NCBI GenBank assembly: GCA_958009085.1
Contig: OY253673.1
Span: 992,001-1,056,000 of the forward strand
Reading direction: 5' to 3'
From: Protoeuglena noctilucae
Taxonomy: Eukaryota
DNA: 64,000 nt
Made by a program: the position numbers and the translations under genes. The notes beneath the pieces were generated by a model. The model did not search any database. It was not told the origin of the DNA and saw only the letters and a list, made by a program, of their open reading frames with translations. Positions 29,588-63,600 of this stretch are shown here, in pieces; position 1 is the first letter of the stretch; each line of letters starts with the position of its first letter.

Positions 29588-30330
29588 CTATGGCTCCCCT
29601 CTTGCGATCCTAAGCAGCTCATCCCTTGCACCTGCGCGCGACCGCCGAAGCCGCGCGTTGCGCCCCTGAGCAAGCTGCCATGGACATCGCCTTGTTGTGC
29701 CTCGCGCCTCACCTGCATACCGCTGGGGCACCCGAGGGGCGGTCACCAGCACCCCGGCTCTGAGTCGCGCCTCTTGTGCCTCGAGGTTGCGTGCGTCCAC
29801 CCTGTAAGCGTCGATGCGCTCCTCTTTCTCCTGCTTCTCACTGCAGCCAAGAGGCTCGACAGAAAGCACGTTGAAGCGGCCAGCTCGCCAATGCGCTGGT
29901 GCAAAGGGTCCGCGAGCCTCACCTTTCGAACAGGGCCTTGTTGTTGTAGTTGGACAGGGCCGCAGTGAGGCAGAGGACGACGAGGGCCACGCGCTGGACC
30001 TTGTAGGACTTTACCCAGCCCCCGCGGAAGAAAGCCACCGTGCGCTCCACGACCCAAATGTACGGCAGCCATATCATACGCGTGAGGCTAACCCCGTCCT
30101 TCGCGCCGCCCCCTGGCGTCCGCCCCGGGACGAACGCAACCAAGTCCTCGACCTGCGCGGGAATCGGCGACCGGGTTGATCCAGCATGCGTCTCGTGCAG
30201 CTTCAGGTGGACGTCATGAAGCGACAACTCGTGGCCCGAAGCGTCTTGCCTTCTCCGGAGGACGCCCCGCCTGCTTGCCGGACCGGATGCGGTCGGCCAC
30301 CATGCGCGCGATATTCGCGCCCCGCACCAT
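29588..30330 (-). CDS. Unknown small protein with one probable TM segment (4 exons)
   Basis: Phase-consistent splice model: MVRGANIARMVADRIRSGKQAGRPPEK|VEDL...VALVVLCLTAAL...LFES|EKQEKEERIDAY...RYAG|ARDELLRIARGEP. The first donor is GC. Confidence 0.6.
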
Positions 30331-30645
30331 CCCACCGCCACCACCCTAGAATCTCACAGCACTGCGCTGATGACGCGAAGCTCTGCGAGATGCTGCCAAG
30401 CACAACCGGCCACGTGTAGAGAAAAACACGTATGGTTCAGGCAATGCACAGGCGCGATGGTCTTTGATTGCCCACCGATGTACACATGATTTCGCTGGTA
30501 AGGACCCAGCACTGCTGCGCGAGGGCGAGGACGGGGCGGGATTGCATACACACTCTTTCCGACGCTCGCGCGCGTCAGGCTGGGCTCCTAATCATCTCCC
30601 TCGCGTGCCTACCCTTCGCGCGAATCATGCGAACCTGATGGATGG

Positions 30646-32553
30646 ATGGAGCCGGCAGCGAAGCGCTCCAAGCGCTCCAAGCTGCCTCCAGACTGGGGCG
30701 ATGCGGTCGCGCGCGCCGCTCTCGCCGCGTGGAGGGGCCTCTCCAAGAACGGCAAGCCCCAGCAGCACGAGCACACGGTCCTGGCCGTAATTCTGGTTTC
30801 TGAAGGCCATGACCCGCTCACCCTGCGCCCGGTGGCACTCGCCACGGGCACCAAGTGCCTCCCCGCCAGCAAGCGCGATCCTCTGGGCTGCTTGATGCGC
30901 GACTCTCACGCGGAGGTCCTGTGTAGGAGGGCGTTTTGCCGCTTCCTGACAAGCGAGCTCGCGCTGGCCAGCGTAGCGGCGCGGGCAAGCCCAGCGGCAG
31001 GTGGTTCAGGGGGGCTGTGGGAGTGGGACGCGGTGGCAAGCAGGTTCGCACTGCGGGACGGGGTGGGCCTGCACCTGTACGTGTCGCAGCTGCCCTGTGG
31101 CGATGCCTGCGTGGACGACGCTGGCGGGGAGGGGGGCGTCGATTGCGAAGGTGGAGTGGCTGGGGCAGGGCGCACGGGGGCCAAGGAGGTTGCACAAGTG
31201 GGGCACGTGCCGACGCAGGGCGAGGTGGACCGAGGGGCGCAGAGGGTCGGGGCGGTGGTGAGAGACGGCGCATCGCGAGAGCGGGCCTGCATTGCTGGTG
31301 TGTGCACTCCACCGCGTCCCTGACTCGGCCTTGCAGCGCAGGAAGCCTGGGAAGGGCGAGGCGACTCTCTCCATGTCGTGTTCGGATAAGGCAAGGGCAG
31401 CAGATGAGCTGCGTAGTGCCTGCGTGACACCAGTACCAGCACCGCATCACAATCAGCACGCTCCTGTCAGCGCAGATCCTGCGGTGGATGCTCGTCGGCC
31501 TCGAGAGCACACTGCTGTCGGGGATGCTCGCGGAGCCTCTGCGTCTGGCCTCAGTGGTCTGCGCACACCGATGCTCTGCGCCAGACACAGCGCAGGCGGC
31601 TTTGCAGCGAGCTCTCTTCCACCGTGCCCCGGCAACAGGCGTCAGACCGCCGCAGGCGAGTGCCGACTGCTAACCCAAGCGCAAGGCCGGTCGCCTTCCG
31701 TGCGACCTCCCTGCTCTCACTTTCTCGGCAGGTGTTTGTGGTCAGCGCCCCACCTGACGAGGACCTCACGCCAGGCCCTGGCAAGGTCGGGTGCGGGTCC
31801 AGCGTGAACTGGAGTGCTGCGTCGATCACGCCCGAAGCGTTGGAAGCTATTCTGGCAGGGCAGGCACCTGTTGCTGCTTCCGTGTGCGGGGACGAGGCAA
31901 GGGCAGCCGTCGCGACGCGGCACCAGCACGAAGCGACGCAGGCGTTGACGGGCCTGCGCCTGGGGCCGAGCAAGTCTGCGCCGCTGTCCAAGAGTGCGAG
32001 CTCTCTGTGTCGGGCGGTCATGGCTGCACGCGTGCTGGTGCTGGCGCGGCTGGCGCCGGAAGTGTGCGCGTGGGCGTTGCGGTTGGATGCGTCGACCACG
32101 TATGGCGAGCTGAAGGACGCGGCTGGGCGAGAGAGGGGCGAGCGATGGTGAGGCACAAACGCTGTTGGGTAGTATAACGAGCAGCGCGTCTGTCACGTCC
32201 CATCTGACGCGTGCCTTCAATTGCAACGCAGGAGGCGTCTGTGTGGGCGGGAGCGGCCAAGGCAAAGCTGCCGGGGAATGCTCCGCGACAACAGCAGAGC
32301 GGGGGAGGGCAATAGCACGGACGCCCTCCGCTGCAATGAAGCGCAGGGCAGCGCACGCGACCCGGGCAATTGGGCCGGCGCGTGCGACCTGTCCTTGTGG
32401 ATCGCCAAGCCAGAGGCCGAGGCCCAGGCGAGGGTGGCAGAGATGCTGGCCGCGCTTGGCATGGAGGACCGCATGCTGGCCCGTGCGCGGCAAGTAGAAA
32501 CGGGGGAGAAAGAGGGAGCCGGGAACAAGACCGGTGTGAATAATGAAACATGA
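30646..32553 (+). CDS. ADAT1: tRNA-specific adenosine deaminase 1 (A37; Tad1/ADAT1)
   Basis: ALATGTKCL, DSHAEVLCRRAF, HLYVSQLPCGDA, RRKPGKGEATLSMSCSDK|ILRW, SVNW, TYGELK and WIAKP; no dsRBD. Confidence 0.88.
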
Positions 32554-32608
32554 TTCAGCATCGACAGCAACACAGACAAATGAGGGGAGCATGCGCTACG
32601 CTCAGAGC

Positions 32609-34506
32609 TCAGAGCTCGTCCGATGCCTTTCCGCCGCCGAAATGGTCCAGGAGGGCAAGGGCCGTCCGGACGTGCAGCGCCGCCCCACGCGTCAGCTGCC
32701 GCTCGTCCATGAAGAACAGCGGGGTGTGGAGCCCGTGCACGGACCCCACGTCTTCGTCCCGGATGCCCAGGAACACAAACAGCCCCGGGACCTTGGCCGC
32801 CATGAACGAGAAGTCCTCCGCCGCCATCGTGGGCTCCTCCAGCCTGCACGCACACACCAACACACACCTCATCGGTCACCTTTAAGTGACACGGATACAC
32901 AAGCTGCACCCAGCATGACCGCCCTGCCGCTCACCACTCGCACGCCACGCCCCCTCGGTCGCACACCTCCTCGCCCCACACCCGCACGAGCCCCGCGTCG
33001 TTCCTCGTCGCCCCGTACGCGAGGCTGCCGAACTCCAGCTCCATCGCCAGGCCGTACATGCTCGTCACGGCCGTGGCCACCGTGCGGATGCGGTCCCGCA
33101 GCTGCGCCTGCTGCTCCGTGGTCAGCGCGCGGATCGTGCCCTGAGAAGGTGGGGCACACAATATCTGAGTGGCGGCGTGTCACTGGGGCAGCCATCGCTG
33201 TCATGCCAGGCCGCGCGACTCGCCTGAAGGGTGACGGAGGGCGGGATGACGTTGGTGGCGCCCTCGCCCGTGTTGAAGCGGCTCACGGTTATGACGGCTG
33301 AGGAAGTGGGGCTGGTCTCGCGAGACACCAGCGGCTGCAGGGCCATGACCACCGCGCTGCCGGCCACCACTGCAGGGGCGAGGGGTGCAGTGCATTGCAT
33401 CAAGATGCTGTATAGGCAATGCACATGCATGCTCAACGCAGTTGCGGGTTTTGCTCACCCGGGTCCGCCGCGAGGTGCGGCATGGCGCCGTGCCCCCCCG
33501 GCCCCGTGATGCGCAGGGTGAAGCGGTCCGACGCCGCCATGATGGTGCCTGCACGGGTTCCCACAGCGCCCGAGCGGAGCCCAGGCCAGACGTGAATCCC
33601 AAACACCGCGTCCACCCCGTCCAGATGCCCCTCATCCACCATACGCTTGCCCCCTCCGAAGCCCTCCTCTGCCGGCTGGAAGATGAGCCGCACCGTGCCT
33701 GGAAGACTGCCCTCGACCCTCTTCAGCAGCGCCGCCGCGGTCAGCAGCATGGTGACGTGGGCGTCGTGGCCGCAGGCATGCATGACGCCGGGAGTGCGGC
33801 TGGAGAAGGGAAGACCCGTGGCCTCCTGGATCGGGAGGGCGTCTGCGGGCGCAGAGACCGTGATGCTTGCGGCGGCGCTCCCAGGGCCAGTGTTTTGCGA
33901 GCAAGATAGGGCAGGGCGTCTGCGGGCGCAGAGACCGTGACCCTTGCGGCGGCGCTCCCAGGGCCAGGGCTTTGATAACAAAACAGGGCAAAGAACCACA
34001 CCCATGTCGGCACGAAGCGCCACGACCGGGCGGCGCCCGTCGCCGATGGTCGCCACGACGCCGGTATCCCCAGCGACGGGGAACTCGTACGGAATGCCGA
34101 GGTCATCGAGGGCCGCGCGGATCTCCGCCGACGCGTGGGTCTCCTGGAAGCTCTGCGGCGGTGAAAGCCGGGTGCGGCTGGTCCCTTTCTGGGGCCGCGA
34201 GCCCGGAGGGAGTCGCCAGCCCAAGCGCAGTTCGCTCCTTACCAGATCCGGGAACAGGTGCAATCGCCTCCGCAGCTCCAGCGCCGTGCGGCTGACCGCC
34301 ATGGCCTCGCTAGTTGACGCCACCCCCGTCTGGCTCGCCAGCGCGTCCCCCAGCGCTTCGCGGAGGCCAGCGGCCATTGTGGCAATGATGTCATCACACG
34401 AGCCGTCGCATTGGTCCCATCCCTGGGGCAGGTCAACGAGCGGGACGGCCGCTGCGATGGAGACAAGAAGGCCTGCGGCCAGAATGCTCCGAAGGAGGCC
34501 CCGCAT
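32609..34506 (-). CDS. M20D amidohydrolase, IAA-amino-acid hydrolase (ILR1/IAR3)-like; signal peptide and C-terminal SDEL
   Basis: [64 protein letters not shown] and LHTPLF. Confidence 0.93.
33835..33990 (-). repeat. 77-bp tandem duplication spanning a 3' splice site
   Basis: agggcgtctgcgggcgcagagaccgtga..cttgcggcggcgctcccagggccag occurs at 33836 and at 33913. Confidence 0.95.
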
Positions 34507-34684
34507 GTCGGGGAGAGTAGACGAGGGCTTAAGAATACTGCCTTTGTTTAACCGCTGGGGACCCCAGAGCTGCTAGTGATATGTCAGGTCGGGTAAACCA
34601 CCCCAAAACAAATGCCGGCAGCTTTTGGGCCAGGAAATTTGAGATGCTGGCAGACGACACTGGCGGCCGCATGCCTTGCATGAT

Positions 34685-36639
34685 TCAGACGTTTTCCCAC
34701 GTGGGCATATGGCACTTGATAGTCCGGGTCGCCTCCTTCCCCAGCGCTGTTTCCAGGTCCCGCAGCATCTCCTCCACCAGCTCCCCCATCGCCCACACCC
34801 GCACGCCCCGCCTCCCATGGTCCCGCACCCGGACGATGGGCTTTGCCGTCGCTGGCCGCCCCTCCACGCCCCGCTCCCGCACCGGAGCTGCCACCCTGTC
34901 CACACCCCTCCCGCACGTGCGGCAGGTCCGGCTGCCCCACTCGGGGGGTTTACCATGCGCCGTCCCGCTTCCCGTGGGCGGCAGGCACCCTCGAGGCGGC
35001 ACATCCACGCGGGCCTGGCTGGGCCGGAAGAGCGCCTGCGGGATGACGAGTCTCCGTTGTACTACACAGGGTGGGCAGGGTGGCAGGCATGGCCGCACCC
35101 AGCCAGCGATTTTCCACCATGCCTCACCAGCACCGGCACGAGCCACTTGACCTTGGAGAGCACCGCACGCCCCACTTCAACTCCCTTGGCGCCCCCTCCT
35201 GCTGTCAGCGTCGCCACTTGGCCCAGGAAGTGCCGCAGGATGTGGCAGGCAAGGGCCACGAACCGCGGCTCGAACGTGTTGAGCATCAGTCGCACTGACG
35301 ACATCAGAGGGTCCACCAAGGAGGCCAGGACACCGCGCCGGGCGGCGGCCTCCACCACCTGCTCCGTGGCACGCACGGCCAGGAACCGGTAGGGCTCGTG
35401 CTGCTCGCGGCACCCGTCCACCAGCGCGGGGAAGAGGTCAAACATCATGGCGGGCGGCATGGAGAGGGGCGTGAGGGGCACCCCCTTCTCCACCTCCCCC
35501 TTCCACCGAATGTCCAGGGGGCGGGGCTCTGGGCCGCGCCGTCGCCGCCGGCTGCACGGGCAGTAAGGTGTTACCAATTACCACACATCTGCTTCCGTCT
35601 CATTGCATGCAAGTGTCGTGCACCGCTCCTCGCCTGGGCATCCTTGTCCCTTCATACGGCGCCGTGCGGGGCCGGCCCTCCACCTCTTCGCCGTCCTCAA
35701 ACACCGCGTCGCTCTCCTTGATCTCCACCGGCAGCAACCCCGCCTCGTACAGCCCCGCGAAGTGCGGGTTCACCAGACCCAAGTTCTCCAGGCGATTGTG
35801 CACCGTGTACGGGCGCCACTTGGGGTTCCCCACCTTACTGGGATCGTGCAGACCCCTGGAGGGGCGAAGCAGAGAGGCCGCGGGTGCAGGAGGCAGGCTG
35901 TGGGGCTGAGCTGCGGCTTATTGTCCCAGCAGCGCTGGCTCACCGGCAGCACGTGCACCAGCGCTCGGCCCGGCGGACCTCATCCGGCACCAGCGCGCCG
36001 TCACGGTTGCCCACGCCGATCGGCGTGGCCCCCAGCACCTGCGCCGCCCCCCGCTGCTCCGCCAATGCCACCATGTGCCGCCCCCGCGCCTCCGCGGGGC
36101 CGAGCATCTCTCGCTGGCCCCCATCCACGATGGCCTGCACCCGATCGTCGAACTCGCGCCGTGCGACCAGGTCGGCCACCAGCGCGTGCCTCCGGTCCGC
36201 CAGCCCACGGAGCAGGGCGCCATGTGCACGGTCCGCCTGGTCCCGGCGCACGTCCCTGGCATGCGTCGGGCCCCGCACGCGGCGGTCCCCTGGACCTTGC
36301 AACGCTTGGCGGGAGCTTGTGGCTGGGCCAGGCCCAGCAAGGGGCGCTCCATCCACGGGGGCCGGGCGCGTGATGGCGGCTCGACGCCGTTGCAGGAGTG
36401 GGTCGTCCGTCACGCGCGCTGGTCCTCCGCTGGACGTCCCTGGGGATGCCCGAGCCGAGGAGCCCGCAAGTCGCGATAGCGTCCCGACAATGATGCCAGC
36501 GCAGAGAAGGTGCTAGCGCATGGCTACGGCTGGGAGGCCAGGCACGCATGCCACCTGCAGGGCCGCTGTTCTTGTCGCGGCCTTGCTCCCGCGCCTTCCC
36601 ATCCCGCCTATCAACTGCTAATCTCTTTGCAATTTCCAT
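34685..36639 (-). CDS. PACRG-domain protein (divergent) with an N-terminal extension
   Basis: FAGLYEAGLLPVEI, LFPALVDGCREQHEPYRFLA, LMLNT, VGRAV and GELVEEML..LE..LGKEA...IKCHMPTWE match the ParcG/PACRG pattern. Confidence 0.8.
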
Positions 36640-37041
36640 GGAAAAACGTCATGTGAAACAACTTGAAAGCTTAGTCCAGAGACGAGGATTTGCAAATGGA
36701 CGGCCAGTAACCCTTCGCATGCGCAGCCTTGGCAGGGCAAGGGTACGCTTTCGCAAGACATGGGGGCGCGCCCGACGCCGGGGCTCTCTTCCGAGCACTG
36801 GCGCCCTTCTCGCGCCTCCGTCTGACGCCAGTGTCTTCGGCGCCCTCAAACAGCGAAATTCAATCACAATCAAGCCACGACTTGCACTCTAAACCAGATA
36901 GCGACAGGCCCAGGGCAGCTGCGGCGAACATGCTCTGCGTGGCCAAGGGCGGGCCGTACACGTGACGGCGGGACCCGGCCGCTTTGGCGTCGGTAGACGC
37001 TGGCCCTGCCGGGCCTTTGCACCGCGAGGTTAAGGACAAGG

Positions 37042-40000
37042 ATGACGAGCGAAAATTACATGGAGGTGTTCCAGGACGCCGCAAATGAGCTCAGCAGCCC
37101 GGACGTGGGTGAGGCCCTTGGCGAACTTTCGCCGCCCCGCCTCCCGCCGCCGGACGCCGGCCACATGTGGCTGCGCCGCGCTCGATCTCCGCCTTGGTCC
37201 ACTGGCTCCCGTTAAAGCCCCGCGAGACGCCCGGCCGTGGCCTGACGGGGACGCCGCTCCCGCCAAGCACTGCCACGCCGGCCCGAGACGCGATGCCCGC
37301 GCAGCGAAGGCCCGATCCTGCGCTTCGTTACATAACGTTTCTGATCCGAGGTTGTGCGCCCGCTCTTACTCCCTCGTGGCCGCGCGCGGACGCGTCGTGC
37401 ATCCCGCGTGCGGCGCAGATTCCGCCTGCGCCGCGTCCCCGCATTCGACTGCCCTCCGCGGCCCCTCAATGAGCCCCACTTGTCTGCTCTGTGCACAGAT
37501 GCCGAGGGCGTGGCCCGCAAGCTGGAGGCGGCGACACTGGTGAAGGAAAAGTTTGAGGCGTTCTTTGCGGGCGAAGTGGCCAACTTCCTCAAGCTCCTGC
37601 TGAGCCCGCTGTGCCAGGTCCTCCTCACGGTCCCCGCCGAGCACGACATGGGCGACCGGCACCGCCTCCGCGGCACCGTGCTGTCCATCCTGCACCGCAT
37701 CCCCACCAATGAGGCGCTCAAGCCCCACGCGGCGCGCATGCAGGAGGTGTGCCTGCAGACGCTGCGCGAGGACAACGAGGAGAACGCCATCGTTGCCATC
37801 CACATGCTCTTCGACCTCCACAAGAACTTCCGCCCAGACCTGAGCGCCCAGGCCCGCGACTTTCTCGAGGTCGTGCGGCTCTTCTATGACGGCTTCCCGC
37901 CCAACGCCGCGGGGTACTTTGGGGCGGAGGGGGTCCCGCCGGAGATGCTCAGGCAAGGAAGGGCACTGAGGTGCTCGACGCGCGCAGTGGAGTTCAGTGC
38001 AAACACGGGCAGAGGGTGGAGAGTGCCTCGCACTGCCTTCCTCTGACGTCGCCCCCTCGCTCTCGCAGGCCCGAGTGCATTCCCGCCACGCGCTCCTTCC
38101 AGCTGGTGGTGGAGACGCCCCTCATCATCATGTTCCTCTGCCAGGTTTACAAGCAGCCCCTGGTGGACCAGCTGCGGGGCCTCGTGCCCCTCATGATACG
38201 CGCCGCCACGTGCAACCACAACCTGCCCAAGGCGAGCTAGCCGGGCGGGCGGGGCGGGTTGGGTGGGTCGACCCAAGCAGTGGCTCTAGCCCTGGACGTG
38301 CAGCCTTCGACTCTCCTCGCCCCCACCCTTCCCCCAGACGGCCCCCCCGGCTTTGCTCAAGATCCTGGGGGACTTCAAGTGGGCCCAGATCAAGACGATC
38401 CAGTTCCTGACGTATCTCGTCAAGGACTTCACGGCGGAGATCGTCCCGCAGCGCAACGCCATCTGCGACGCGACCGCGGGGCTGCTGTGCACGGCGCCCG
38501 ACACGCACGCGGTGCGGAAGGAGCTGCTGGTGACGACGCGGCACATGATCCAGAGCAAGGAGCTGCAGGAGGGGTTCTACCCGCACCTGGCGGTCTTCCT
38601 GGTGGACGGCAACCTGGTGGGCCGGCAGACGCTGACGTCCGAGCAGCTGCGCCCGATGGCGTACTCGCTTCTGGCCGAGCTGGTGCACCACATGCGGGAG
38701 ACGCTGACCGCGGCGCAGCTGGCGGACGTCGTGCACCTCTTCTGCTGCCTCCTCCACGACCCCTCCATCCCCCCCAGCATCGCCACCACCTGTGTCAGGC
38801 GAGTGTCAGGGGGCGACAAGGCGTGGAGACCACGGGAGCGTGCAATGGGAGAGATATCCATGTGGCAGGAAGCTTTCTCATCTCCGCACACAGGCACGGA
38901 CCATCTACCACTCCCTCTGTCCCCCCAGGCTGCTCCTCAACCTGGTGCAGACCATCTTCCACTCCCTCTCCCCCCCAGGCTTCTTCTCAACTTGTTGTAG
39001 ACCATCTACCACTCCCTCTTCCCCCCCAGGCTGCTCCTCAACCTGGTGCAGACCATCTACCACCGCCGGGCCCAGGCGACCCCCGAGGACCGCGCCCTGG
39101 GCCGCCACCTGCTGATGAAGATCCTCAACTGCTACGCCACGGTGCTGCCGGCGATGGCGCGGGGCACGCACGACCTGCTGGAGGAGGTGCGGGTGGAGCG
39201 CAACCACCGCAACGCCGTGCGGGACATGCTGCTGGAGGGCACGGGGCAGCGGGGGGAGGGGGATGACGGGGAGGGGGGCGTGGGTGGCAGGGGGGGAAGG
39301 AAGAGCGAGGTGGAGGGGGAGGGTGGCGAGGGAGGGGACAGCGCGGGGCGGGAGGGGGGCGACGGGGCAGACGGGGACGGCGGGTCGGTCAAGGCGAGGC
39401 ATGGGGGATGACTGGGCACATGACATGGACACGCGTGGTGGATGTCTCTGTTACCAATTACATCCGCCGTGTTCCTCTGTCTCGCAGACGCCCCGCAGGA
39501 GTGCCCGGGGCGAGGACCTGATGGGTGCGGGGTCGGAGGGGGGCGTGGAGCGAGGGAGCGGACCCATGTCTGAGGTGGACAGCGAGCGGGGCGACGGTGG
39601 CAAGAGCACGGGGGATCGCGACAGGGAGAAAGAGAAGGAGAAGGGCGCTCGCGTGGAGGGCCAAGTGCTGCTGCACATGCTTCCCCAGACGGACAAGCTG
39701 CGGGAGCTGAACGACCGCAAGCACATGCTCTACATGCTGCTCACGTGCATGAAGACGCTGCTGTTCGGGGTGACCAACTACGACCGGCAGCCGCACCACC
39801 GGGGGGAGGCCAGGGGAGAGACGGGGGGGGCGCGCACGGGGCAGGGGGAGGGGGAGGTCAACAGCGGCCAAGCGGGGGCGCCTCAGGCCAAGGCGAGCGC
39901 TGACACTTGTCATACACGCCGCTGTGTGCCTGGCTGGGCAAGGGGCGGCTTAGCATGCATGGCTTTGCAAGCAGTATTCACATGCCCACTCCCTCTACCA

Positions 40001-43000
40001 CCCCGCAGCCCGCGCTGTCCGAGGGTATCACCCCCGAGGAGGTGCGGCTGGTGAGCCAGGTGCTTCTGTCGGGGATGGAGGCGTGCGCGCTGTACTGGGA
40101 GACGGAGGTCAAGCCCGAGGCCCAGGGGGTCTACTACCTCATGGCGGAGATGCTGTCGGGTAAGTGGCACTGTGGGGGTGCACTGTGGTGATGGCATGGG
40201 TGCTATGCAGTGCGGGTGCGCTTGGCACGTGTACTAGCATTGCTGGGTGACCACGCTCTCAAAGACCTCAGCTCCACCGCTGCCCTGCACCCGCTCCCTC
40301 GCCACCCATCCCATCTATCTGTGCCCTGGTTGCCCCCACATCAACCCACCCATACCACCCCTCCCCCCCCCCAGTTTTGGAGCGCCGCGAGCTGCACCTG
40401 TGCCTGGTCCCCCACATGGAGGCCTTCGTGTCCCTGCTGTCCCGCTCCGACCACCTCCTCCACATCGTCGTGCACCTCCTCATGAGCGAGAACGCCAACC
40501 AGACGGCCCAGGCGTTCACCGACGTCCTCGCCGGCTACCTCTTCAACGAGAAACTGGCGGCATTGGACGACGTGGCATCGCGGGACGGAGCGCTGGTGCT
40601 GCGGCTCTTCCAGATGCTCTTCGGCGCCCTCACCAAGCACCCCGCGCAGCTGCGGGGGGCCCTGCAGCCCCGCATCTGCGCCCTCGTCGACCGCTGCCTG
40701 CACCACATGGCGTCCAACCCCTCCCCCATGGGCTACGTCCAGGTGTTGAGGGCCGTATTCCGCGCGCTCCAGGGCGGCCGCAACGTCGCGCACCTCAAGC
40801 CCATGTTCGCCACCTTCCTCCCCGCCCTCGAGGGCACCATCCGGCGCCTCTCCGCACTCCTCGCCGGGCCCTGCCGCCGCGTGCCCCGCGCCAGCGTGGT
40901 CGAGCTGCTGCTCATGCTGCCCGCGGAGCTGTCGGACCAGCTGGAGCATTTGCGGCACCTGGTGCGGCCGCTGCTGCTGGCGCTGCGGAGCACGGAGGAC
41001 CACGTGCTGTCGTTGGGGCTCAAGACGCTCGAGTTCTGGATCGACAACCTCAACCCGGAGTTCCTGGAGATGACTATGGGCGACCACCAGCGGGCCATCC
41101 TGGCCGCGCTGTGGGACCAGCTGCGCCCGGGGCAGATCGGGTTCTCGGCCAAGGCCCTGCAGATCCTCGGGAAGCTCGGGGGGCGCAACCGCAGAGTGCC
41201 GAGGGTGAGGGGCGGGGGGAGGGCGTTGGTGTGACTGTTGATGACGAGTGCCTGATAGTTAGGGGCGCCTGCTGCAGGACCATGTGGAGCGGTCGGTGTG
41301 CCTGTTGATGAGTCCCTTTGCCATGCAAACAGCCCCATGACATCCACTCCCCTCCCCGCAGGAGGTGCGCGACTTGGAGTTCCGGGACCTCCCCGAGCAC
41401 GGCATGCGCATCATCCTCACATTCGAGCCCTCCACGCCCTTCCTCATGCCCGTCGACAAGTGCGTGCGGTTCGCGCGGTCCGCCATCCGCAACGAGCCCC
41501 TCCCCGCGCGCGTCCCTGCGCCCGCCTCGTCCGACCGGGGGTCGCAGCAGGCGTCGCAGCGCAAGCCCCCCGAGCGCTCGCTCCACAACCGCACTGAGGC
41601 GGCCAAGTTCATCCGCATGACCCTCGTGCGGTCCACCAACCTCCGCGACCCCGCGGACAGCGCCCTCGCGTGCGCCACGCCCGAGGACAAGGTCAAGGAG
41701 GCGCTGCTGGGGCCGCACGGGAAGCCACGGGTGCCGCCCCTGCCCATGCCGGCCCAGCGCCAGGGCATCCCCAAGACCAAGGTGGGCCATGGGGGCGGCC
41801 AGGGTAGCAGGCGAATGGTGGACGCGGTCTTGGGCCCTGCATGGCTGAGAGTCGTGACGAAGCGGCCGAGCTGAGCCGTGGGCTGCGGGGGGTTAGCTGG
41901 TGGTGTCTGCGCACTCGAGTAAAAACCCCAAGAATCGAGTTCATGCCTGCGCCTGCACCTGTACTTGCAGGTCCAGTACGAGTCGGAGAAGGACGTCTTG
42001 CGGATCGCGCTGACGGCTGCGCTCGAGGCGGCGGCCGACGCGGAGCTCTGCTGGCACGAGATGAAGGCGTCGGGGGCGGAGGGTGCGGGCGCGAATGCGG
42101 AGGCGGGGTCGGACGAGCAGTCTCGGCGCAGCACCGGCCCCGGGGCGCGTGACTTGTCCCAGGCGCCCTCGCGGCAGTTCGCGGGGGGGCTGGTGCGCCA
42201 CGCGGCGCTGCTGATGGCCGCGGGCGCGACGACCGTGGCGCTCCCCACCTCGACGGACCTGGACAACGGCATCGACGCCGAGGTGCACCACCAGAGCTAC
42301 CGCCAGCTGAGCCCGGCGCTGGTGGTGGACGCGCTGGCGGCGCTGCTGACGGACTCGGAGGAGCGGCGCGAGTACGCAACGACAGCACTGCAGCAGCTCC
42401 TGCGCACGGTGCTGGTGGTCGTGGAGGAGCAGCGGCGCCTGGGGAGGCCCATGGCCGCGCACGAGTCGGAGTTCCCGCCGGGCGGCAAGGACGCGGCCGG
42501 TCTGCCCGCGCTGCCGCCCGTCCCCGCGGGCGTCCAGGACGTGGTCGACCGCGTCACGCACCTGTGCTACTCCCAGGACCCCGCCGCTGCCGTGGCGTGC
42601 GTGGAGGCGCTGGCGGCCGTGTGCCGCACGCTGCCCCGGGAGTTCCTGGAGGTGCTGGCCGTGCCGATGCTGCGGGCCATGATGGCGGTGCTCGACCGGT
42701 GCCCGGGGGACGGCACTGTCGAGGAGATTGGCAGGCGAGGCGGGGTCTTGGTATGGGTGCGGGTGGTGCTGTGAGGACGAGTCCTACTGGTGGTTGCGCT
42801 GTGGTTGCAGTTGCGAACGCGACCCGCTGCTCTGTTCTGATCTCGCAGGAAGGCCGTGCGCGTGCTCATGCGGCGGTGCGCGGGCGTGGAGGCGTGGCAG
42901 CGGGAGCCGCTCACCGAGGCCGAGGCCATCCCCGCGTGCATGCGCGGCGACGACGCTGCCGGGAACCACAAGGCCCCGCAGTCCAGGCCCTCGCGCCGCG

Positions 43001-52000: not shown

Positions 52001-54141
52001 CACCCGCGTGCACGACGCGGCAGAGGTCCCCCAGGCCCTGCGCGCCGAGATCGCCAACATCTTCCTCAAGCACATCTTCCAGAAGTCCCCCGACCGCGCG
52101 GACCTCCAGGGCCCCGTGCCGCGGCGGCTGGACGGGGCCATGGAGCGCGACTTCGGCCTCGAGTCCCCCGACGCCCCCCGGACCCTGGGGGAGCTGATAC
52201 GCCGCCTCAAGACCTGGCACGCGCTGCTCATCGCGGCGACCGAGGTGGCGACGGCGGGGTCGTTCCGCCTCGAAGCCGAGGCGCCGCGGCTGGCGGACGG
52301 CACCCCGCGCCTGGCCGACCTGGCGCTGGCCGGCATGCCCCTCCCCGGGCAGCACATGGGCGGCGCGGACCCCGCCGTCACCGGCACGGTCTTCGTCGAG
52401 CGCGTCGGCAGCGACATCTCCGCCGTCCGCCGCAACGGCGCCACCGCCCGGCGGGTGGAGCTGCTGGGCACGGACGGCGCCTCGCGCCACTTCCTCTTCC
52501 AGACCTTCACGACCGCCTCCGTCGCCGCCGAGGAGCGCGCGATCCAGCTCCTGCGCCTCCTCAACCACCAGCTGGAGCACGTGCCCCCCGCCCGCCGCCG
52601 CCGGCTCCTCTTCACCGCGCCCGCCTCGGCGCCCGTGGTGGCCAACATCAGGCTGCTGGAGGACGACCCCGCGAACTCGACGCTCGCGGACGCCTACACC
52701 ACCTCGTGCGAGCGCCGCGGCCAGGACCCCGACATGGCGATCCTGCACTTCAAGCGCATGTGCTTTGCCGAGGCGGGGGAGCTGGCCAACCTGGAGCCCC
52801 AGCAGCGCGCGCACCAGGCCTTCAAGAACATCGCGCACGCCGTCTCGGACAACATCCTCGGCCAGCAGTTCTACAAGATGCACCCGCAGCCGGCCGCGCT
52901 GGTGAGGGCCGGCGCATGCATGGGTCGGGGCGCGTGCATACTAGTTGCCTTGGCAAGGATCCATCGCATGCCGTCAGCCGTCAGCTGCCCCGCGACAATC
53001 TGACAATCACCTCTCCGCTCGCAGTTCGCCTTCAAGAAGTCCCTGTGTGCCCAGATGGGCCTCTTCGCCACCTTCTGCTTCGCCCTGAGCCTGGGAGGGC
53101 GCACCCCCGCACGCATCCTCTACTCCAGGGCCACCGGTGAGGGGCGGGACATGGGTGTCTAGATGTCTACATGACATGTCATGAAATCGGATCGACTCTT
53201 GTTGATTTCTTGGTTGCTGGTACCAGCTGGCTCACGACGACCACCATCGCGCACCCCTCCCCTGCAGGCGCGGTGACGATGGCGGACGTGAGCCTGCAGT
53301 ACCACTCGCAGCAGCTGCTAGCCGTGGCCAACGAGCACGTCCCTTTCCGACTCACGCGCAACATGCAGCTGTGCTTCAGCATCTTTGGCGTGGACGGCGT
53401 CTTCGTCCCCGCCATGGTGCTGCTGGCCGTGGCGTGCTTGCAGCCCAGGAGCAACGTCCTCGACTTCCTGCACCTCTTCTTCCGGTGAGACGCGAATGAA
53501 GCATCGCGATGCCTGCGATGCCAGTGATCACTCAATGGCTGACACGTTGGCCACTGTTGAGTTGTTTGGCGGCAGCGAGCGACTGACCGCCAGACCTCTA
53601 ACTCTGCCGCGCCCGCTGTCCGCGCTCGCAGCGACGACCTCACGGCGTGGCAGGCGGACCTGCTGGCCCGCTCCCTGCGCCAGGGCCAGGACAAGGGCCC
53701 AGGCGAGGCGTCCGTGCTCAGCCTGCCGCAGCTGGCGCAGGCGGTGGAGCGCAACGTCGCCCAGGTGGCGGCACGCGTGGAGCAGATCGCCCCGGCGGAG
53801 ATGGTGCACCTGCTGGAGGGACAGCAGGCGAGTGGTGGGGAGGGGAGATGGCATGGGGTTGTGCCCCACAGCATTTGAGTTGCTCTGTGCCGTCACGCAT
53901 GCCGCGTGTCTGTCCATTCCCTTCACCTCACGTCACCTCACGTCACCTCACCTAACGCGCCACGGCCCCACTTCACCCCCCACAGGCCGCGGCGCCTGGC
54001 CGCCCCCGCTTCGGATACCTGGAGAGCGACCGCCCCGCCAGCGCCGAGGACGTCATGGCCCCCGCCAAGCACCTCGTGGACCAGGCGTCCGACTCCAAGA
54101 ACCTCTGCGCCATGGACCTCCTCTGGCACCCGTGGTTCTGA
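37042..54141 (+). CDS. TRRAP: TRRAP/Tra1 (PIKK pseudokinase; SAGA/NuA4 scaffold), ~25 exons
   Basis: LREDNEENA, AQIKT, LRPMAYSLLAELVHHMR, LLLNLV, GLKTLEFWIDNLNPEFL, ILGKLGGRNR, FAT region (WRFRTPNEW, VNRLASIARKHG, EAFVKIHEQ, WVPQLL), VPFRLTRN and FATC NLCAMDLLWHPWF-stop. Confidence 0.97.
38899..39063 (+). repeat. ~51-bp tandem triplication of an intron acceptor plus exon start
   Basis: Units accatctaccactccctct.ccccccag|gctgctcctcaacctggtgcag at 38900, 38951 and 39001, plus a partial unit at 39052. Confidence 0.95.
47369..47415. repeat. AT-rich intronic microsatellite, (TA)n interrupted by GGC
   Basis: ataggtatataggcatatatatatacatataggcatatatataggca inside a TRRAP intron. Confidence 0.85.
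49581..49666 (+). repeat. (CACCT/CATCT)n pentamer tract upstream of a TRRAP acceptor
   Basis: cacctcacctcgtctcccatctcaccccatctcatctcacctcacctcacctc... ending ccccgcag. Confidence 0.8.
53921..53955 (+). repeat. (CACCT/CACGT)n pentamer tract in the last TRRAP intron
   Basis: cttcacctcacgtcacctcacgtcacctcacctaac. Confidence 0.8.
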
Positions 54142-54491
54142 TTCTGACGCCAGAACTGCGTGCCATGCCATGCCCTGCCTCGCGGAAGCCCGGGGACGCA
54201 ACGCGTGGATGCCTGCCGACTTGCGCCCCTCACACCCTGTCATGACTGCAACCTCATGTGCACCCCTAGTGTGCCCTTGTCCCTCTGTTCCGCCCCTGTT
54301 GCTTAGCCGGGCCGCAGTTGTGGGTCCCAACTCTCCACCGCATCTTCTCTTTAACAACGCCCTAGATGCTACATGAACGCACGCAACGTGCTGCAAAGGA
54401 CCTCTCTGCAACCCAGCGCATGCATATGCACTCTGTGCTGTGTAGGAAAAGTTTGTATATGCTTGTGGGAAAAGGTGTCGCAGTACAGGGT

Positions 54492-56713
54492 TCAGAACCT
54501 CTGCAGCGCCCCGGGATCCTCCGGGAGATCCTCCAGATCCGAATCGTCGTCGCTATAATCAGACAATGCGTCGGAACTACTCGCAGACGAGCCACGGCGC
54601 GCCACGGGCGGGCGCAGCCGTGGGCCGGCCCCACGCTCAGACGCGTCCCCCTCATCGCCCGGTCCCTCGGCCAGGGGCTCGTCATCGCGAAGAGTCCTCT
54701 CTGAATCGTCCACATCCATCCACCGCACCTGCTCAGGCTGCGGCAGCGGGATGCCCTGCAAAGCCCTGCGGCGGTGGCGAGGATGGTGAACGCGTGACGC
54801 ACTGTGGCATGCACGCACAGCAACGCAGCACGCCGACCTCGGCCAACCCACTCAAGCATCCCACCCAGCACATCAGCGCAGCGCTGTTGCCGGCAGCGCC
54901 CACGCACCCATCCACCCCCGCCACTCTCATGTCTGCCGGGGCTCTTGACGCTTGCGCCTTCCTCCCCCGAACCGCATGGCCCCTCTTGCCCGCCGCGGAC
55001 ACTTTTTGGCGGAAGTCCTTCAGCTTCTCTGGCTCCATGCGGGCAAAGGACGCCTCCCGCATGGCACGCCTGGGCGCGTGCAGCGCATTGGCCAGGTGCT
55101 CTCTCAGCTGTTTCTGGACGCAAGAAGTGGCAGAGGGACCGTGATCCACGGCGCCATCACAGCAACGGAACAGCAAAGCAGAGTCACATGCACAGCTAGA
55201 GATGAGAGATGGCAGAGGAGGTGGCTGCCATTGGAGATCAATTGAATGGGCGAATGCAAGGGCTCACTGCGCGGGCTCTCACCTCGTGGGAGGCGACGGT
55301 GTTGGGCAATACCACGCTGGCGCGAGAATTGAATCGGAACGACCGCTCGGCCGGCGTGAGCATGAGGCGGCGGTTGAAAGAGTCCCGCATTTCGTGCACG
55401 GCTTTGAAGTAGGCTGGGGTGGGAGAGCGGTGCAGAGCGGGTTGCAGAGAGACATGCGAGAGTTGCTGACTTGTCGAGATATCGTGGACAGTGACACGGG
55501 CGAAAGCATAGCCAGCCGCTGCGGCGCTGCCCCACACATTGCTGGTAGCTTCGCTGGTAGCTCGTGGGCCCAGCACTCACCCGAGAACCGAATCTTCATG
55601 GCCCTCAGCTGCTCCGCTCCCTCGCCCCCCGCCGTGACCTTCTCGACGTGCTGTGCCAGGGCATGGGCCGCCTCCGTGCCCGCCATGCTGTGACGGATGC
55701 GCCGCAGACGCTCGGTGGGGGCCACGCTGGCCACCTGGGACACATCGACGGCCCCAAAGACGAACGCGTCCTCTGCGCGGAGGGCCGCGGCCACGCGGAC
55801 CGCGTCGTGGAAGTCGCCGTGGCGCTTGGCCCGACTGCAGGGCAAGGGGCGGCGGGGCACTGCTTAGGTGGCGCTGCTGGGGCGGCGCTGCTGGGGCGGC
55901 GTAGCGGCGTAGCAAATGCATCGAAAAGCGCAGACTGCTCGGCAGCGAATGTGCAGCTCCAGCCATGGCAGGCGCACCGGACGATGTCGGTCAGCGCCCG
56001 CGCTTGCGGCGGTGACAGGTAGATGCGCGTCGGCGTCTTCATGTGTTGCGTGTGGTACAGCGCGTAGACAGCAAAGAGCGCTCCGACGCGCCGAAGGTCG
56101 GGGGGAGCGTCCTGCAGGGCAGGGAACAGCGGCAGAGTTGCAGTGCGACGCTTGCGGGCGTGCGCGCGGAACTACACAGCCCCTTGCCCACACCTCTGGT
56201 GCTGCATCAGTCGCAGAAGGCCGGGAAGCGGGTCGGACCGCTTCCAACGCCGACTCGCGCTCCGCAGCTGGCCGTTCTGCAGGTGGACGGACACGGTTGC
56301 GGTCCGTCTGGCGCAAGGACAGCTTCTCGTCCATGGCGCGCGCTTCACCAAACACATCTAGCTGTCTACTCACCAAGGAACCTGAGGGACGTCCGGAATA
56401 GCCGCTGCGTGAACTCCCACGGCCACTCGTCCATCAGCGCTCCCTCGTGGATCATCGAGAAGACGCGCTGCTCCCACACCGAGCGGAACGTCGCGAAGGA
56501 CGGCGGCTTCTTGTGCTTTTCCACTGCGCATGGCGTTCCGATACGCGTCACAGCGGGCACGGAAAGCACAGAAAGCCGCTTCGATTTCCAGAAGCGAATG
56601 CGTGACGCACCGTCGATGATAAAGGCGTCTATCAGGCCCCCGATGTCCTTCTCGACGGGATTGTCCCCCGCCGCCTCCTTCCTCCGCCTCCTCCGCACTG
56701 GTGGTGCCGCCAT
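54492..56713 (-). CDS. SNAPC1: snRNA-activating protein complex subunit 1 (SNAP43/SRD2-like)
   Basis: EKDIGGLIDAF, SFATFRSVWEQRVFSMIHEG, RRVGALFAVYALYHTQ...RIYLS and HDAVRVAAALRAEDAFVFGAV fit the SNAP43 family; acidic C-terminus. Confidence 0.8.
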
Positions 56714-56974
56714 CGCGACGCAACCTTCGCCTACGCCTAGCCCACCCTCTCGCGAGGGGGCGGCGGACACAGCCCCGCCGCAGTGTCGACTGCTCTCGAT
56801 ATGCAGGCAGGACATTCGTCGGTCAGCCCAGTTTGCTTCATCGACGTCAGAAAACACCATGCAAGCTCTTGCAGGTTGGTTTGTTGGGCGCCGCAGCAAC
56901 CACACATCGAGGCTGCTGATTGCAGTGCAGGAGCGGTCGATCGCAGCCGCAGCTCAGCACATCCTCGGCTCTCG

Positions 56975-58376: not shown

Positions 58377-58481
58377 CAATCAAGCACGACACGATCATAA
58401 CAGAGCGCTGATGCTCGACAAGGGTCCCATTTCAGCCCTTCACACGAGCGCCGTCGCCCTCCACTTCTGCCAAGATAATGC

Positions 58482-60038: not shown

Positions 60039-60636
60039 GCAGATCCATTAAACAAGCGCATGTCCTGTGTCTGCGATGACCGATGGCAGCTGGGGTGCTC
60101 TCTCTGCGCGCCTGGGCTCGACAGCTCCGCACCAGGAAGCGCCACATGCCCAGCCGAGCCCAGACGGCCTCCCACTCCCCCAGCCCCGCCGCAGCCGCAG
60201 TGCTGGACGCTGGCCGCAGGACCCGATGCATAGCGTGCCCCTGCAAGGCGAGCGGGGCGCACCCAAGCACGCGCTGTGAAATCTGTGCACAGAACGACGA
60301 GATGGGCGCTGCTGCCACAACGACTGCGTCGGGGAGCCGTGGGTTTGCGGCTCACAGTGCGCATCGGGGCGAAACAGCCAACGCGGATGATTCAATCGAG
60401 AAGACTGGCACTAGGGTTTTGTCGGCGGCGCACCGGGTCCTTTCCACGCCCCTTCGGCCACGGTGATTGGTGGAGAATCGCGTTGTTTCCCTGAAGAGTG
60501 CCTACCCGTTCCGATTGCGTGCATGGGCTCTTCACTCGCCACCCTTCCCGACCAAGGCGTTTCAAAACAGCTGCTTCTCCTCGTCGAACATCGGGACCGT
60601 TAGAAGGGGAGGGTCGGGAGCTGGGCGCGAGGCATC

Positions 60637-63600
60637 ATGCCTCCGAAGGCGAAGCAGGGGAAGGAGGATGGGGACGGGGTGTCGCGGATTGCCATCGTCA
60701 ACCCAGACCGGTGAGCCCCCATGATTGCCTGACTCCTCACGGGGGGCTCCGGCATCGTCGCGGCGCCGCCCACCGCCCCCGCCGGCCCCCGCTGGGTCGC
60801 CGCTCCCTGGGACGACCTCACGCGTGCTGTCGCCGCTTGCGATATTGCTGGAGGGTGATTTAGTTGGGCAAAGACCGTTGCGCGAGCGGCACGCGCAGAA
60901 CGCGGCGGGATGCGCGGCACATGGGCACGCGTGCTTCGCTGCGCCGGCCAGGCCTTTTACGGCTGTCGAGGGCCCGCTCTCGCCAGTCTCGTATGCAGCC
61001 GCTGACTGGCCTCCTTCTGCTTGCACCTCGTGGCTACCGGAGGCGCATGCGCCATCCCGCTACCGCGCTGCCCTGCACGAGGCGACCCGTGTTGCTCCCG
61101 CCCCTTGCGGCGCAGGTGCAAGCCGAAGAAGTGCCGGCAGGAGTGTAAGAAGTTCTGTCCTGTCGTCAAGATCGGGAAGCTTTGCGTGGAGGCCAATCCC
61201 AACAGCAAGATAGCCTGGATTTCCGAGGAGCTGTGCATTGGCTGCGGCATTTGCGTCAAGAAGTGCCCCTTCGAGGCCATCATCATCATCAACCTGCCGA
61301 AGAACCTGGAGACGCAGGCGAGCAGTGCGCCGGGGACCGTCCGCAGCCTCTCACGCGGGCAGAGCCCAGTCGCACTAGCGGACTCTTCGTCAATGACCTG
61401 ACCCTGACCCGCGGCGCCCCCGCAGACGACGCACCGCTATGGGGCCAACACCTTCAAGCTGCACCGTCTGCCCATGCCGCGGCCGGGGCAGGTGCTGGGC
61501 CTGGTGGGCACGAACGGCATCGGCAAGTCGACGGCGCTCAAGATCCTGGGCGGAAAGCTGAAGCCCAACCTGGGTCGCTTCGACACGCCGCCGGACTGGG
61601 AGGAGATTACGCGTTACTTCCGCGGATCGGACCTGCAGAACTACTTCGTGCGCCTTCTGGAGGACGACCTCAAGGCGGCGATGAAGCCGCAGTACGTGGA
61701 CCAGATCCCCAAGGCGGTGCGGGGCAACGTGGGCACGGTGCTGAGTTCGAAGAACGACCGGGGAGCGATGGACACGCTGGTGAAGGACCTCGACTTGGAG
61801 CAGGTCATGGACCGGAACATCGAGGTGCTGTCGGGCGGGGAGCTGCAGAGGTTCGCCATCGCCGTCACGGGGTGCCAGAAGGCGGACGTGTACATGATCG
61901 ACGAGCCCAGCTCCTACCTCGACGTCCGGCAGAGGCTCAAGGTGGGCGCATGCGGATGGCGTGTCACGATTGCTTACCATGCACCAGGCATCCTTCTTCT
62001 GGTTTCAATGGCAGATATCCACTCATCGGCCTCTGTATGCTGCTGATAGCGTGCTGGTAAGGTGTCCCCATACCCCTTGCTGCGACACACCCCACAACTT
62101 GACCCACCGTGCGTTGCTCTGCCTCCTCCCCAGGCGGCCCAGGTCATCCGGGGCCTTCTAACCGACGAGTGCTACGTCATCGTCGTCGAGCACGACCTAG
62201 CCGTCCTCGACTACCTTTCGGACTTCATCTGCTGCCTGTATGGCCAGCCCGGCGCGTACGGTGTGGTGACGATGCCCTTCTCGGTGCGCGAGGGCATCAA
62301 CATCTTCCTGGCGGGGTTCGTGCCCACGGAGAACCTCAGGTTCCGGGAAACCGAGATGACCTTCAAGGTGAGAGGGCCTTATGGCCAGGGGCATTCCCTG
62401 GTCTTGACATGAGCTGCGTGGTTGCGAGGGGCGGGGGCGGTGGACGCATCGTGCAGGCCAACGCTGGCAGTGACTGATGAGTGATGATGCGATTGTGCAT
62501 TTGCAATGCAGGTGGTGGACACGGCGTTGTCGGAGGAGGAGATCCGCCGCGACCACCACTACACGTACCCTGCCATGGAGAAGACCCAGGGGTCCTTCCA
62601 CCTCAAGGTCGAGGAGGGCGAGTTCAGGTGAGATGAGTTGCTTGGGGGTGGGTGGTACTTGCTGAGTAGATGGCATGTTCAGGTGAGAGGACTTGCTTGG
62701 AGTGAATGGGAAATTCATGCTGAGGAAGCAAGTTGATTGTGCTGCTGGGGCGCACGGGGTGCCGCTTGACATCTCACGATGGTGTCACTGTGCCAAATTT
62801 ACACATCTCTGCTGTCCTCACATCACACGCCCTACCCCGCCCCCAGCAACTCGGAGATCGTGGTGCTCCTGGGGGAGAACGGGACGGGCAAGACGACGCT
62901 CATCCGCATGCTGGCCAAGATGCTCGAGCCGGACGACTGCACCGTCATGGACGACCTGCCGGGCCTGAGCGTGTCGTACAAGCCGCAGAAGATCGCACCC
63001 AAGTTCCCCGGGACCGTCCGCGAGCTCCTCATGAAGAAGATCCGGGACTCGTTCGTGCACCCGCAATTCCAGGTCAGAATGTCAGCTGCAGGGTGGCTCG
63101 GCGTGGGTGGAGGCAGGCCTGTTGCCGCGAGGGATGGGGTGTGCTTGCGGGTCAAGCGTGGGACTGCTGGGGTCAAGAGAATGGGAGAGAATAAACGCCG
63201 CGTGGTTTCAGACATGGGTGGTTTCGGCTAGTTGATCACCTCATGTTTTGACTCTTTGCTCATTCTGCCCCTCTTCCGCAGACGGACGTGCTGAAGCCCA
63301 TGATGATCGAGCAGCTCCTGGACCAGGAGCTGCAGAACCTGTCGGGAGGGGAGCTGCAGCGCGTGGGCATCACACTGGCGCTGGGCACGCCCGCCGACAT
63401 CTACCTGCTGGACGAGCCGTCGGCGTACCTGGACGCCGAGCAGCGTATCGTGACGGCCAAGGTCATCAAGAGGTGAGCGGGGTTTGAGTACATGTAAATT
63501 TGGGGTTACTTGCCGCACCAAGACAAGCCTCCCATTCCTCAGGGCAGCTGTGTAACCCATGCGACCGTCAGCATCGGTCTGTGCACCACGTGAAGGTGGT

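Follow-up and report, generated by a model that had tools for sequence, protein, structure and literature searches.

Can introns that begin with GC rather than GT make up a large share of the introns of a genomic region, and if so, what makes them so frequent? The question is raised by a 64,000-nt stretch of contig OY253673.1 (positions 992,001 to 1,056,000; called the window below), which carries a TRRAP/Tra1 gene together with ABCE1, ADAT1 and other intron-rich genes. The original prediction had claimed that GC-AG introns lie far above a share of about 1% here, and the claim is borne out: 8 of the 22 introns with support independent of our gene model are GC-AG, and the model itself, a small hidden Markov model (HMM) of our own, places 69 introns in the window, 49 with GT and 20 with GC donors, compared with 0.4–0.9% in model organisms. 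For human, mouse, fly, worm and Arabidopsis, the shares given by Sheth et al. 2006 (PMC1557818) are 0.37–0.87%. The observation of a GC-AG share far above that of model organisms is thus confirmed, and GC-AG introns probably make up between about one quarter and one third of all introns in the window; among the modelled TRRAP introns, they make up 43%. All 15 donors named in the original prediction read AG|GCGAG or AG|GCAAG on the coding strand; four of these sites are proven by RNA or a transcript, four are supported by comparison, and seven rest mainly on the gene model. We consider it likely that they are ordinary U2-type GC-AG introns of the major spliceosome in a marine green-lineage alga, made frequent by near-perfect donors and GC-biased substitution.

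The strongest evidence comes from RNA. Three marine metatranscriptome runs (X1, X2 and X3) hold sequence near-identical to the window and were mapped on positions 36001–56000, with a DNA run (X7) as control; for each RNA joint, all equivalent placements of the cut were listed and a recognised dinucleotide pair was sought. X3 yielded two spliced contigs (19 and 20) over the mapped region. Contig 19 joins 50521 to 50692 and removes a plus-strand intron at 50526–50695 (donor CAG|GCGAGA), for which GC..AG is the sole recognised pair among 6 placements. Contig 20 (3763 nt, depth 22) removes the plus-strand introns 51782–51923 and 53828–53985, both with the donor CAG|GCGAGT, and GC..AG is again the sole recognised pair, among 4 and 6 placements, respectively. 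In the same run, the plus-strand introns 52902–53024, 53137–53267 and 53485–53631 are GT-AG, with GT..AG as the sole reading, and two CT..AC joints in contig 20 give the GT-AG introns 54766–54907 and 55114–55282 of a SNAPC1-like gene on the minus strand. None of the X3 splice joints is present in X7. At all three TRRAP sites with spliced GC joints, RNA uses the GC donor and not a nearby GT, so that the GC donors predicted at 50526, 51782 and 53828 are proven by the X3 contigs.

The other two RNA runs are less informative. X1 and X2 contigs cross 42735 unspliced, yet they also contain RNA-proven introns (for example X2 record 16, 53244–53569); these low-depth contigs stem from pre-mRNA before splicing, from retained introns or from genomic DNA present in the libraries. 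Since they contain introns that are proven to be spliced, their unspliced cover of 42735 is uninformative. The region from 37.3 to 39.3 kb has no RNA cover, which says nothing on splicing there. Two features of the mapped region are recorded separately. Contig 20 continues from the TRRAP 3′ end into the convergent SNAPC1-like gene (54141–55300); the 3′ ends of the two genes abut or overlap, and one assembled contig does not prove a single transcript. Within TRRAP introns, (CACCT)n-like and TCACCTCACG microsatellites at 49574–49664 and 53923–53951 attract many unrelated metatranscriptome contigs (summed X1 depth 3621 and 1014) and break the X7 contigs.

A fourth GC-AG intron is fixed by a transcript-derived protein. 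The database protein P0003 is 100% identical to the ABCE1 of the window, and its source contig of 2142 nt is too short to hold the ABCE1 introns; P0003 is therefore derived from spliced RNA. Exact back-mapping of P0003 defines seven ABCE1 introns that are complete in the window, six GT-AG and one GC-AG. The latter, 61318–61425 on the plus strand (donor CAG|GCGAGC), has GC..AG as the sole recognised pair among 6 placements, and it restores NLETQ|TTHRYG as had been predicted. Spliced RNA contigs and the transcript-derived protein together prove 4 GC-AG introns beside 11 GT-AG introns; the GC..AG ends and the absence from mature RNA are directly seen at the three X3 joints and in P0003.

The remaining TRRAP introns were placed with the HMM, which describes coding sequence by a 3-periodic Markov model and splice sites by a single shared matrix, with equal scores for T and C at +2. 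When compared with the 15 proven introns, it was exact at 13, missed two at gene ends and was contradicted by none. The resulting TRRAP/Tra1 model spans 37499–54141 on the plus strand, with 24 exons, 23 introns, a product of 4340 aa and a TGA stop at 54139–54141; one or more further N-terminal exons lie upstream of the model. The exons match Pfam Tra1_central, Tra1_ring, FAT and FATC, and the product ends in FATC, has no internal stop and is collinear with 62 homologues. Ten of the 23 modelled introns are GC-AG, at the same ten sites that had been named earlier, where the count had been put at up to 9 of about 24. With GC penalised by 6 nats, all ten GC donors are still called, and with 10 nats, six of them are. 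No transcript fragment from the same organism turned up for the TRRAP 5′ region in protein searches. The protein P0122 (593 aa, 100% identical) was considered as a spliced product of this gene and rejected, being a read-through of a genomic open reading frame (ORF) at 44014–45993 of the window. This start-to-stop ORF passes the true exon end (45945) by 16 codons and is a prokaryote-style call in a public protein collection.

For the 5′ part of TRRAP, we compared the model with a related metagenome contig, L001 (4382 nt, 75% G+C), whose TRRAP is 56–80% identical to that of the window. None of the first eight TRRAP introns modelled in the window, five of which are GC-AG, has a counterpart in L001. 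Three of the GC-AG introns, all on the plus strand, give gap-free alignments with L001 when the GC donor is used. At 37953–38068 (donor CAG|GCAAGG), the GT alternative at 37971 adds 6 residues; at 38232–38337 (AAG|GCGAGC), 16 conserved residues are lost with the GT alternative at 38184; and at 38799–39029 (CAG|GCGAGT), the best GT alternative adds 2 residues. With the best GT alternatives, the local alignment score against L001 drops from 3324 to 3162. The in-frame stop that had been noted after 38232 is present two codons into the intron (AAG|GCG AGC TAG). Across the 38799 junction, TTCV|RLLLNLVQTIYH is contiguous in L001, and the junction is gap-free in 44 of 47 high-scoring segment pairs with homologues.

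We also scored the GC model against the best GT alternative for each distant homologue, a test that is unreliable in variable regions. The GC donor is preferred by 44 of 48 homologues at 38232, 49 of 51 at 38799, 50 of 55 at 50526 and 10 versus 0 at 51782. The same test wrongly favours GT at the RNA-proven donor 53828 (2 for GC versus 11 for GT, with 14 ties among 27). The predicted GC donors at 38232 and 38799 are thus supported by both comparisons and that at 37953 by the alignment with L001. The 38799 intron has a further peculiarity, a 51-bp tandem repeat of 3.3 copies (38899–39063) that comprises the acceptor and ~30 nt from the start of the following exon (LLLNLVQTIYH). The intron therefore holds two decoy copies of the acceptor and exon start: that at 38929 shifts the frame (101 nt extra), and that at 38979 keeps the frame but brings in a TAG. 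Solely the last copy (39030) yields the protein seen in the intron-less L001.

The two introns that L001 does have, at residues ~81 and ~256, occupy positions that are intron-less in the window (the overlap is 37499–42000). One of the two is GC-AG (CAG|GCGAGC..AG), as confirmed by the intron-less collinear sequence of the window. The absence of any shared TRRAP intron position implies heavy intron loss or gain between these relatives.

The fourth site supported by comparison is in ADAT1, which was worked out from ORFs and Pfam, as the HMM made no ADAT1 call (low coding score). At the plus-strand intron 31391–31475 (donor AAG|GCAAGG; MSCSDK|ILRW), the match to A_deamin positions 130–149 ends on the last residue before 31391, and the match to 150–197 begins on the first residue after 31475. 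The predicted GC donor is thus backed by exact continuity of the profile. A candidate second GC-AG intron of ADAT1 that had not been predicted lies at 31656–31731 (+; donor CAG|GCGAGT; acceptor ...tttctcggcag); an in-frame stop follows five codons past its donor, and the next exon corresponds to A_deamin 238–304. An extra AG|GCGAGG at 32428 (+) follows the open frame WIAKPEAEAQ|, 3′ of the ADAT1 stop and outside all modelled genes. In total, the supported GC donors are 31391, 37953, 38232, 38799, 50526, 51782, 53828 and 61318, and the supported GT donors are 40160, 41205, 41782, 52902, 53137, 53485, 60711, 61942, 62368, 62628, 63073 and 63473 on the plus strand and 54907 and 55282 on the minus strand.

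Seven of the predicted sites, 39394, 39893, 42735, 47313, 27805, 18708 and 33223, are probable GC-AG introns based mainly on the HMM. Four belong to TRRAP (+): 39394–39487 (donor AAG|GCGAGG), called by the HMM only, kept to −10 nats and located in low-complexity coding sequence; 39893–40008 (AAG|GCGAGC), kept to −6 nats and aligned to L001 without gaps within ±18 residues, in a variable region of low complexity; 42735–42848 (CAG|GCGAGG), kept to −6 nats, whose retention meets a stop at 42772 and for which the GC donor gives the better score in 6 of 10 distant homologues and the GT alternative in none; and 47313–47483 (CAG|GCGAGT), kept to −8 nats. In the M20 amidohydrolase gene, the probable intron 33141–33223 (donor CAG|GCGAGT; VTLQ|GTIR) is on the minus strand. 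Its GC donor at 33223 had been predicted from protein continuity, and this is partly supported: the upstream exon aligns to residues 223–267 of ILL2 (PDB 1xmb), reaching residue 47 of 48, while the downstream exon had no match in the PDB or Pfam searches. A glucan-water-dikinase-like gene (CBM20, GWD1_pHisD, PPDK_N) has a probable intron, called by the HMM only, at 27805–27921 (+; GAG|GCGAGG), and the exon upstream of it was placed by neither Pfam nor PDB. In the GDA1/CD39 apyrase gene, the probable intron is 18621–18708 on the minus strand (CAG|GCAAGT); the donor motif is present, and its first intron base is 18708 instead of the predicted 18707. PDB alignments of the flanking exons are compatible with this intron, with about 30 residues unplaced and inexact continuity.

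The HMM also called two probable GC-AG introns that had not been predicted, both on the minus strand. One, at 7397–7484 (donor AAG|GCGAGG), lies in Exo70, where the Exo70_C profile is roughly continuous across the flanking exons (282 + 17 versus 296); the other, at 35552–35633 (CAG|GCGAGG), lies in a ParcG-like gene and is an HMM call only. Four GC calls without consensus, at 3702, 13145, 36259 (1240 nt) and 23219 (1357 nt), were not counted as credible.

What distinguishes the GC donors is the rest of the splice site. In the supported set, all eight GC donors have the full consensus outside +2 (AG|GCRAG), compared with 4 of 14 GT donors (AG|GTRAG; Fisher p = 0.0017). A weak GT donor is that at 53137 (CCG|GTGAGG). 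In the HMM set, the full-consensus donors comprise 16 GC and 9 GT, and the non-consensus donors comprise 4 GC, all doubtful, and 40 GT (p = 2.5e-6). The bare motif count is poor evidence for donors: AGGCRAG occurs 39 times on both strands, with 26 expected from an order-1 Markov model. Inside the modelled genes, it occurs 25 times in sense and 6 times in antisense orientation (binomial p = 0.0009), and 16 of the 25 sense sites are donors in the HMM model. C is present at +2 in 64% of the full-consensus donors in the HMM set and in 8 of the 12 supported ones; inside introns, C/(C+T) is close to this at 0.59, and GC3 of TRRAP is 0.95. The proximity of the C share to the intronic composition fits near-neutral drift under GC pressure, within the limits of such small numbers. 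That the donors compensate for the mismatch, as had been proposed earlier, fits the 8/8 versus 4/14 contrast and equals the published explanation, in which GC-AG donors offset the +2 mismatch by a better match to the U1-complementary sequence (PMC1557818).

These features suggest how the introns may have become frequent. A C at +2 would break one base pair with the 5′ end of U1 snRNA and would be tolerated only if −2A, −1G, +3R, +4A and +5G all pair. In such fully pairing donors, T or C at +2 would be nearly neutral and genome-wide GC pressure would shift the position toward C; donors with any other deviation would retain T. A high GC-AG share would then result from many near-perfect donors multiplied by a GC-biased substitution regime, and no new splicing mechanism would be needed. 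We propose, from the sequence features described, that the GC-AG introns of the window are removed by the U1/U2/U4/U5/U6 spliceosome. The canonical U1 5′ end is ACUUACCU and the canonical U6 box is ACAGAGA; an Rfam search of the 64-kb window found no snRNA. A stricter version, that selection does not distinguish T from C at +2 in donors that otherwise pair perfectly with U1, so that the GC-AG share tracks base composition, is offered only tentatively.

Could the GC donors be artefacts of the gene model, with nearby in-frame GT donors used in reality? An in-frame GT alternative does exist within −114 to +39 nt of all ten TRRAP GC donors in a GT-only parse, and the seven sites listed above as HMM-based are without evidence independent of the model. 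In the distant-homologue test, GT is favoured at two of them, 39893 (GC 4 versus GT 8) and 47313 (1 versus 4, with 5 ties), and the outcome is near even at 39394 (5 versus 3). The RNA contigs, by contrast, use the GC donor at 50526, 51782 and 53828, and P0003 fixes that at 61318. The GT alternatives at 37953, 38232 and 38799 introduce indels of +6, −16 and +2 residues relative to L001, and the GT-only parse of TRRAP costs 102 nats and resorts to poor donors (gtgctc, gtgccc, gtcagg, gtcaac and others). None of the 15 proven introns contradicts the HMM. We regard an artefact as highly improbable. A spliceosome altered in the U1 5′ end, U6, the U5 loop, U1C or Prp8, which accepts C at +2 as readily as T, would be suggested by the very high share among supported introns. 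The abundance in Aureococcus and M. pusilla was termed an enigma by Iwata and Gotoh 2011 (PMC3033335), who raised base modification or U1 snRNP proteins as possible reasons. A spliceosome indifferent to C at +2 would not need compensation, and the strict compensation seen here argues against it: the GC donors are not relaxed, with 8 of 8 versus 4 of 14 at full consensus and no credible GC among the 44 non-consensus donors. In addition, both algae whose U1 was inspected in PMC3033335 have a canonical 5′ end of this snRNA. We consider an altered spliceosome unlikely.

Two further explanations concern the distribution and the origin of the introns. The excess might be local to TRRAP or to this region and not genome-wide, since the GC-AG share is 10 of 23 in TRRAP but 1 of 7 in ABCE1 and the data span 64 kb; we find this equally unlikely, as GC-AG introns are supported or modelled in eight genes (TRRAP, ABCE1, ADAT1, M20, dikinase, apyrase, Exo70 and ParcG-like) and the related contig L001 also has one. 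Many of the GC-AG introns might instead have been gained recently, with a GC donor from the outset, and not have drifted from old GT introns. This would agree with the eight window introns absent from L001, five of them GC-AG, and the two L001 introns absent from the window. Intron loss in the more compact, 75%-GC relative explains the pattern equally, and the 69 modelled introns share no sequence similarity, so that there is no introner-like family: an all-versus-all blastn (word 9, E ≤ 1e-3) returned only low-complexity matches of 31–38 nt and strand-overlap self matches. A birth with GC donors is improbable in our view, if slightly less so than an altered spliceosome. The reading as ordinary U2-type introns under GC pressure has its own difficulties. 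It is drawn from one 64-kb window and one 4.4-kb relative, with 7 of the 15 named sites resting mainly on our own gene model, and few donors stand behind the agreement of 64% with 0.59. The unevenness between TRRAP and ABCE1 is not explained by the compositional model alone. At 37953, the distant homologues lean to GT (15 for GC, 24 for GT and 8 ties among 47). G+C alone does not predict the share either, as Micromonas RCC299 has 2.7% GC-AG at 64% G+C according to Iwata and Gotoh (PMC3033335).

The GC-AG abundance seen here adds one more case to a pattern already published for high-GC algae. Iwata and Gotoh 2011 (PMC3033335) reported GC-AG shares of 39.6% in Aureococcus, 22.2% in Micromonas pusilla and 7.7% in Chlorella sp., tied the abundance to G+C, found canonical U1 5′ ends and left the cause as an enigma. 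A share of 55–56% has been given for Emiliania huxleyi (Feldmesser 2014, PMC4028052; PhycoCosm, PMC7779022), and a 2024 preprint (10.1101/2024.10.30.620910) gives 14–17% for Aureococcus and about 14% for Pelagomonas. As described in these sources, the algae share with our window a G+C above 65%, tens of percent of GC-AG introns and a canonical acceptor, and the published explanation is GC pressure. High G+C is found here too (63–71% across the window in 4-kb bins and 75% in L001), the share being that of the window and of L001 (1 of 2) only. In contrast to Micromonas or the pelagophytes, the window is far more intron-dense (about 70 introns per 64 kb), and its introns are not introner copies. 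The introner elements of Micromonas and Aureococcus (PMC4540971) occur in algal lineages that likewise have many lineage-specific introns and GT or GC donors; the blastn comparison led us to reject introner-type repeated introns here.

Compared with the GC-AG introns of Sheth et al. 2006, those of the window have the same GC..AG ends, donors closer to the U1 consensus than GT donors and an ordinary acceptor, while their share is far higher and the local consensus is GCGAG, which matches the GTGAG of the host, and not GCAAG(T). U12-type GC-AG introns have the same ends but need GCATCC at +1 to +6 according to that source. A U12-type assignment (GCATCC donor and TCCTTAAC-like branch site) was rejected on the donor, since the credible donors are all GCGAG or GCAAG. 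A literature search on GC-AG introns in green algae found no report on a lineage of this kind and none in addition to the sources named here; a genome paper on the host may exist.

The consequences are practical as well as mechanistic. About one intron in three in the window would be modelled wrongly by gene finders restricted to GT donors, and in TRRAP the GT-only parse gains or loses residues at each of the ten GC sites; annotation of this host or its relatives must therefore allow GC donors. Few high-GC algae are known in which GC-AG introns reach tens of percent, and the window adds a green-lineage, intron-dense member; it also gives a testable rule, GC only in otherwise perfect donors and at a rate near base composition. 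If the neutrality of +2 is true, the clade, which also lacks shared intron positions between the window and L001, would offer a natural setting in which to measure how much pairing with U1 a donor requires and could show whether GC-AG introns arise by drift or at birth.

The window carries about 15 intron-rich eukaryotic genes. Pfam matches on the modelled exons name a protein kinase, dynein light chain LC8, Exo70, TFIIH Tfb2, a formate/nitrite transporter, GDA1/CD39 apyrase, a FabA-like protein, the glucan-water-dikinase-like protein with its CBM20 starch-binding domain, M20 amidohydrolase, the ParcG-like protein, TRRAP/Tra1, SNAPC1 and ABCE1. The starch dikinase with CBM20 and the best ABCE1 matches, which are green algae, point to a green-lineage alga as the probable host. 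Two FastTree trees of ABCE1 disagree, one placing the host outside the sampled green clade and the other inside Chlorophyta, weakly with Pycnococcus (0.76); from these single-gene trees, the host is placed no closer than a green-lineage alga. Near the start of the window, a modelled plus-strand exon without a Pfam match (531–1148) contains a 54-bp (18-codon) tandem repeat of 4.4 copies at 595–879.

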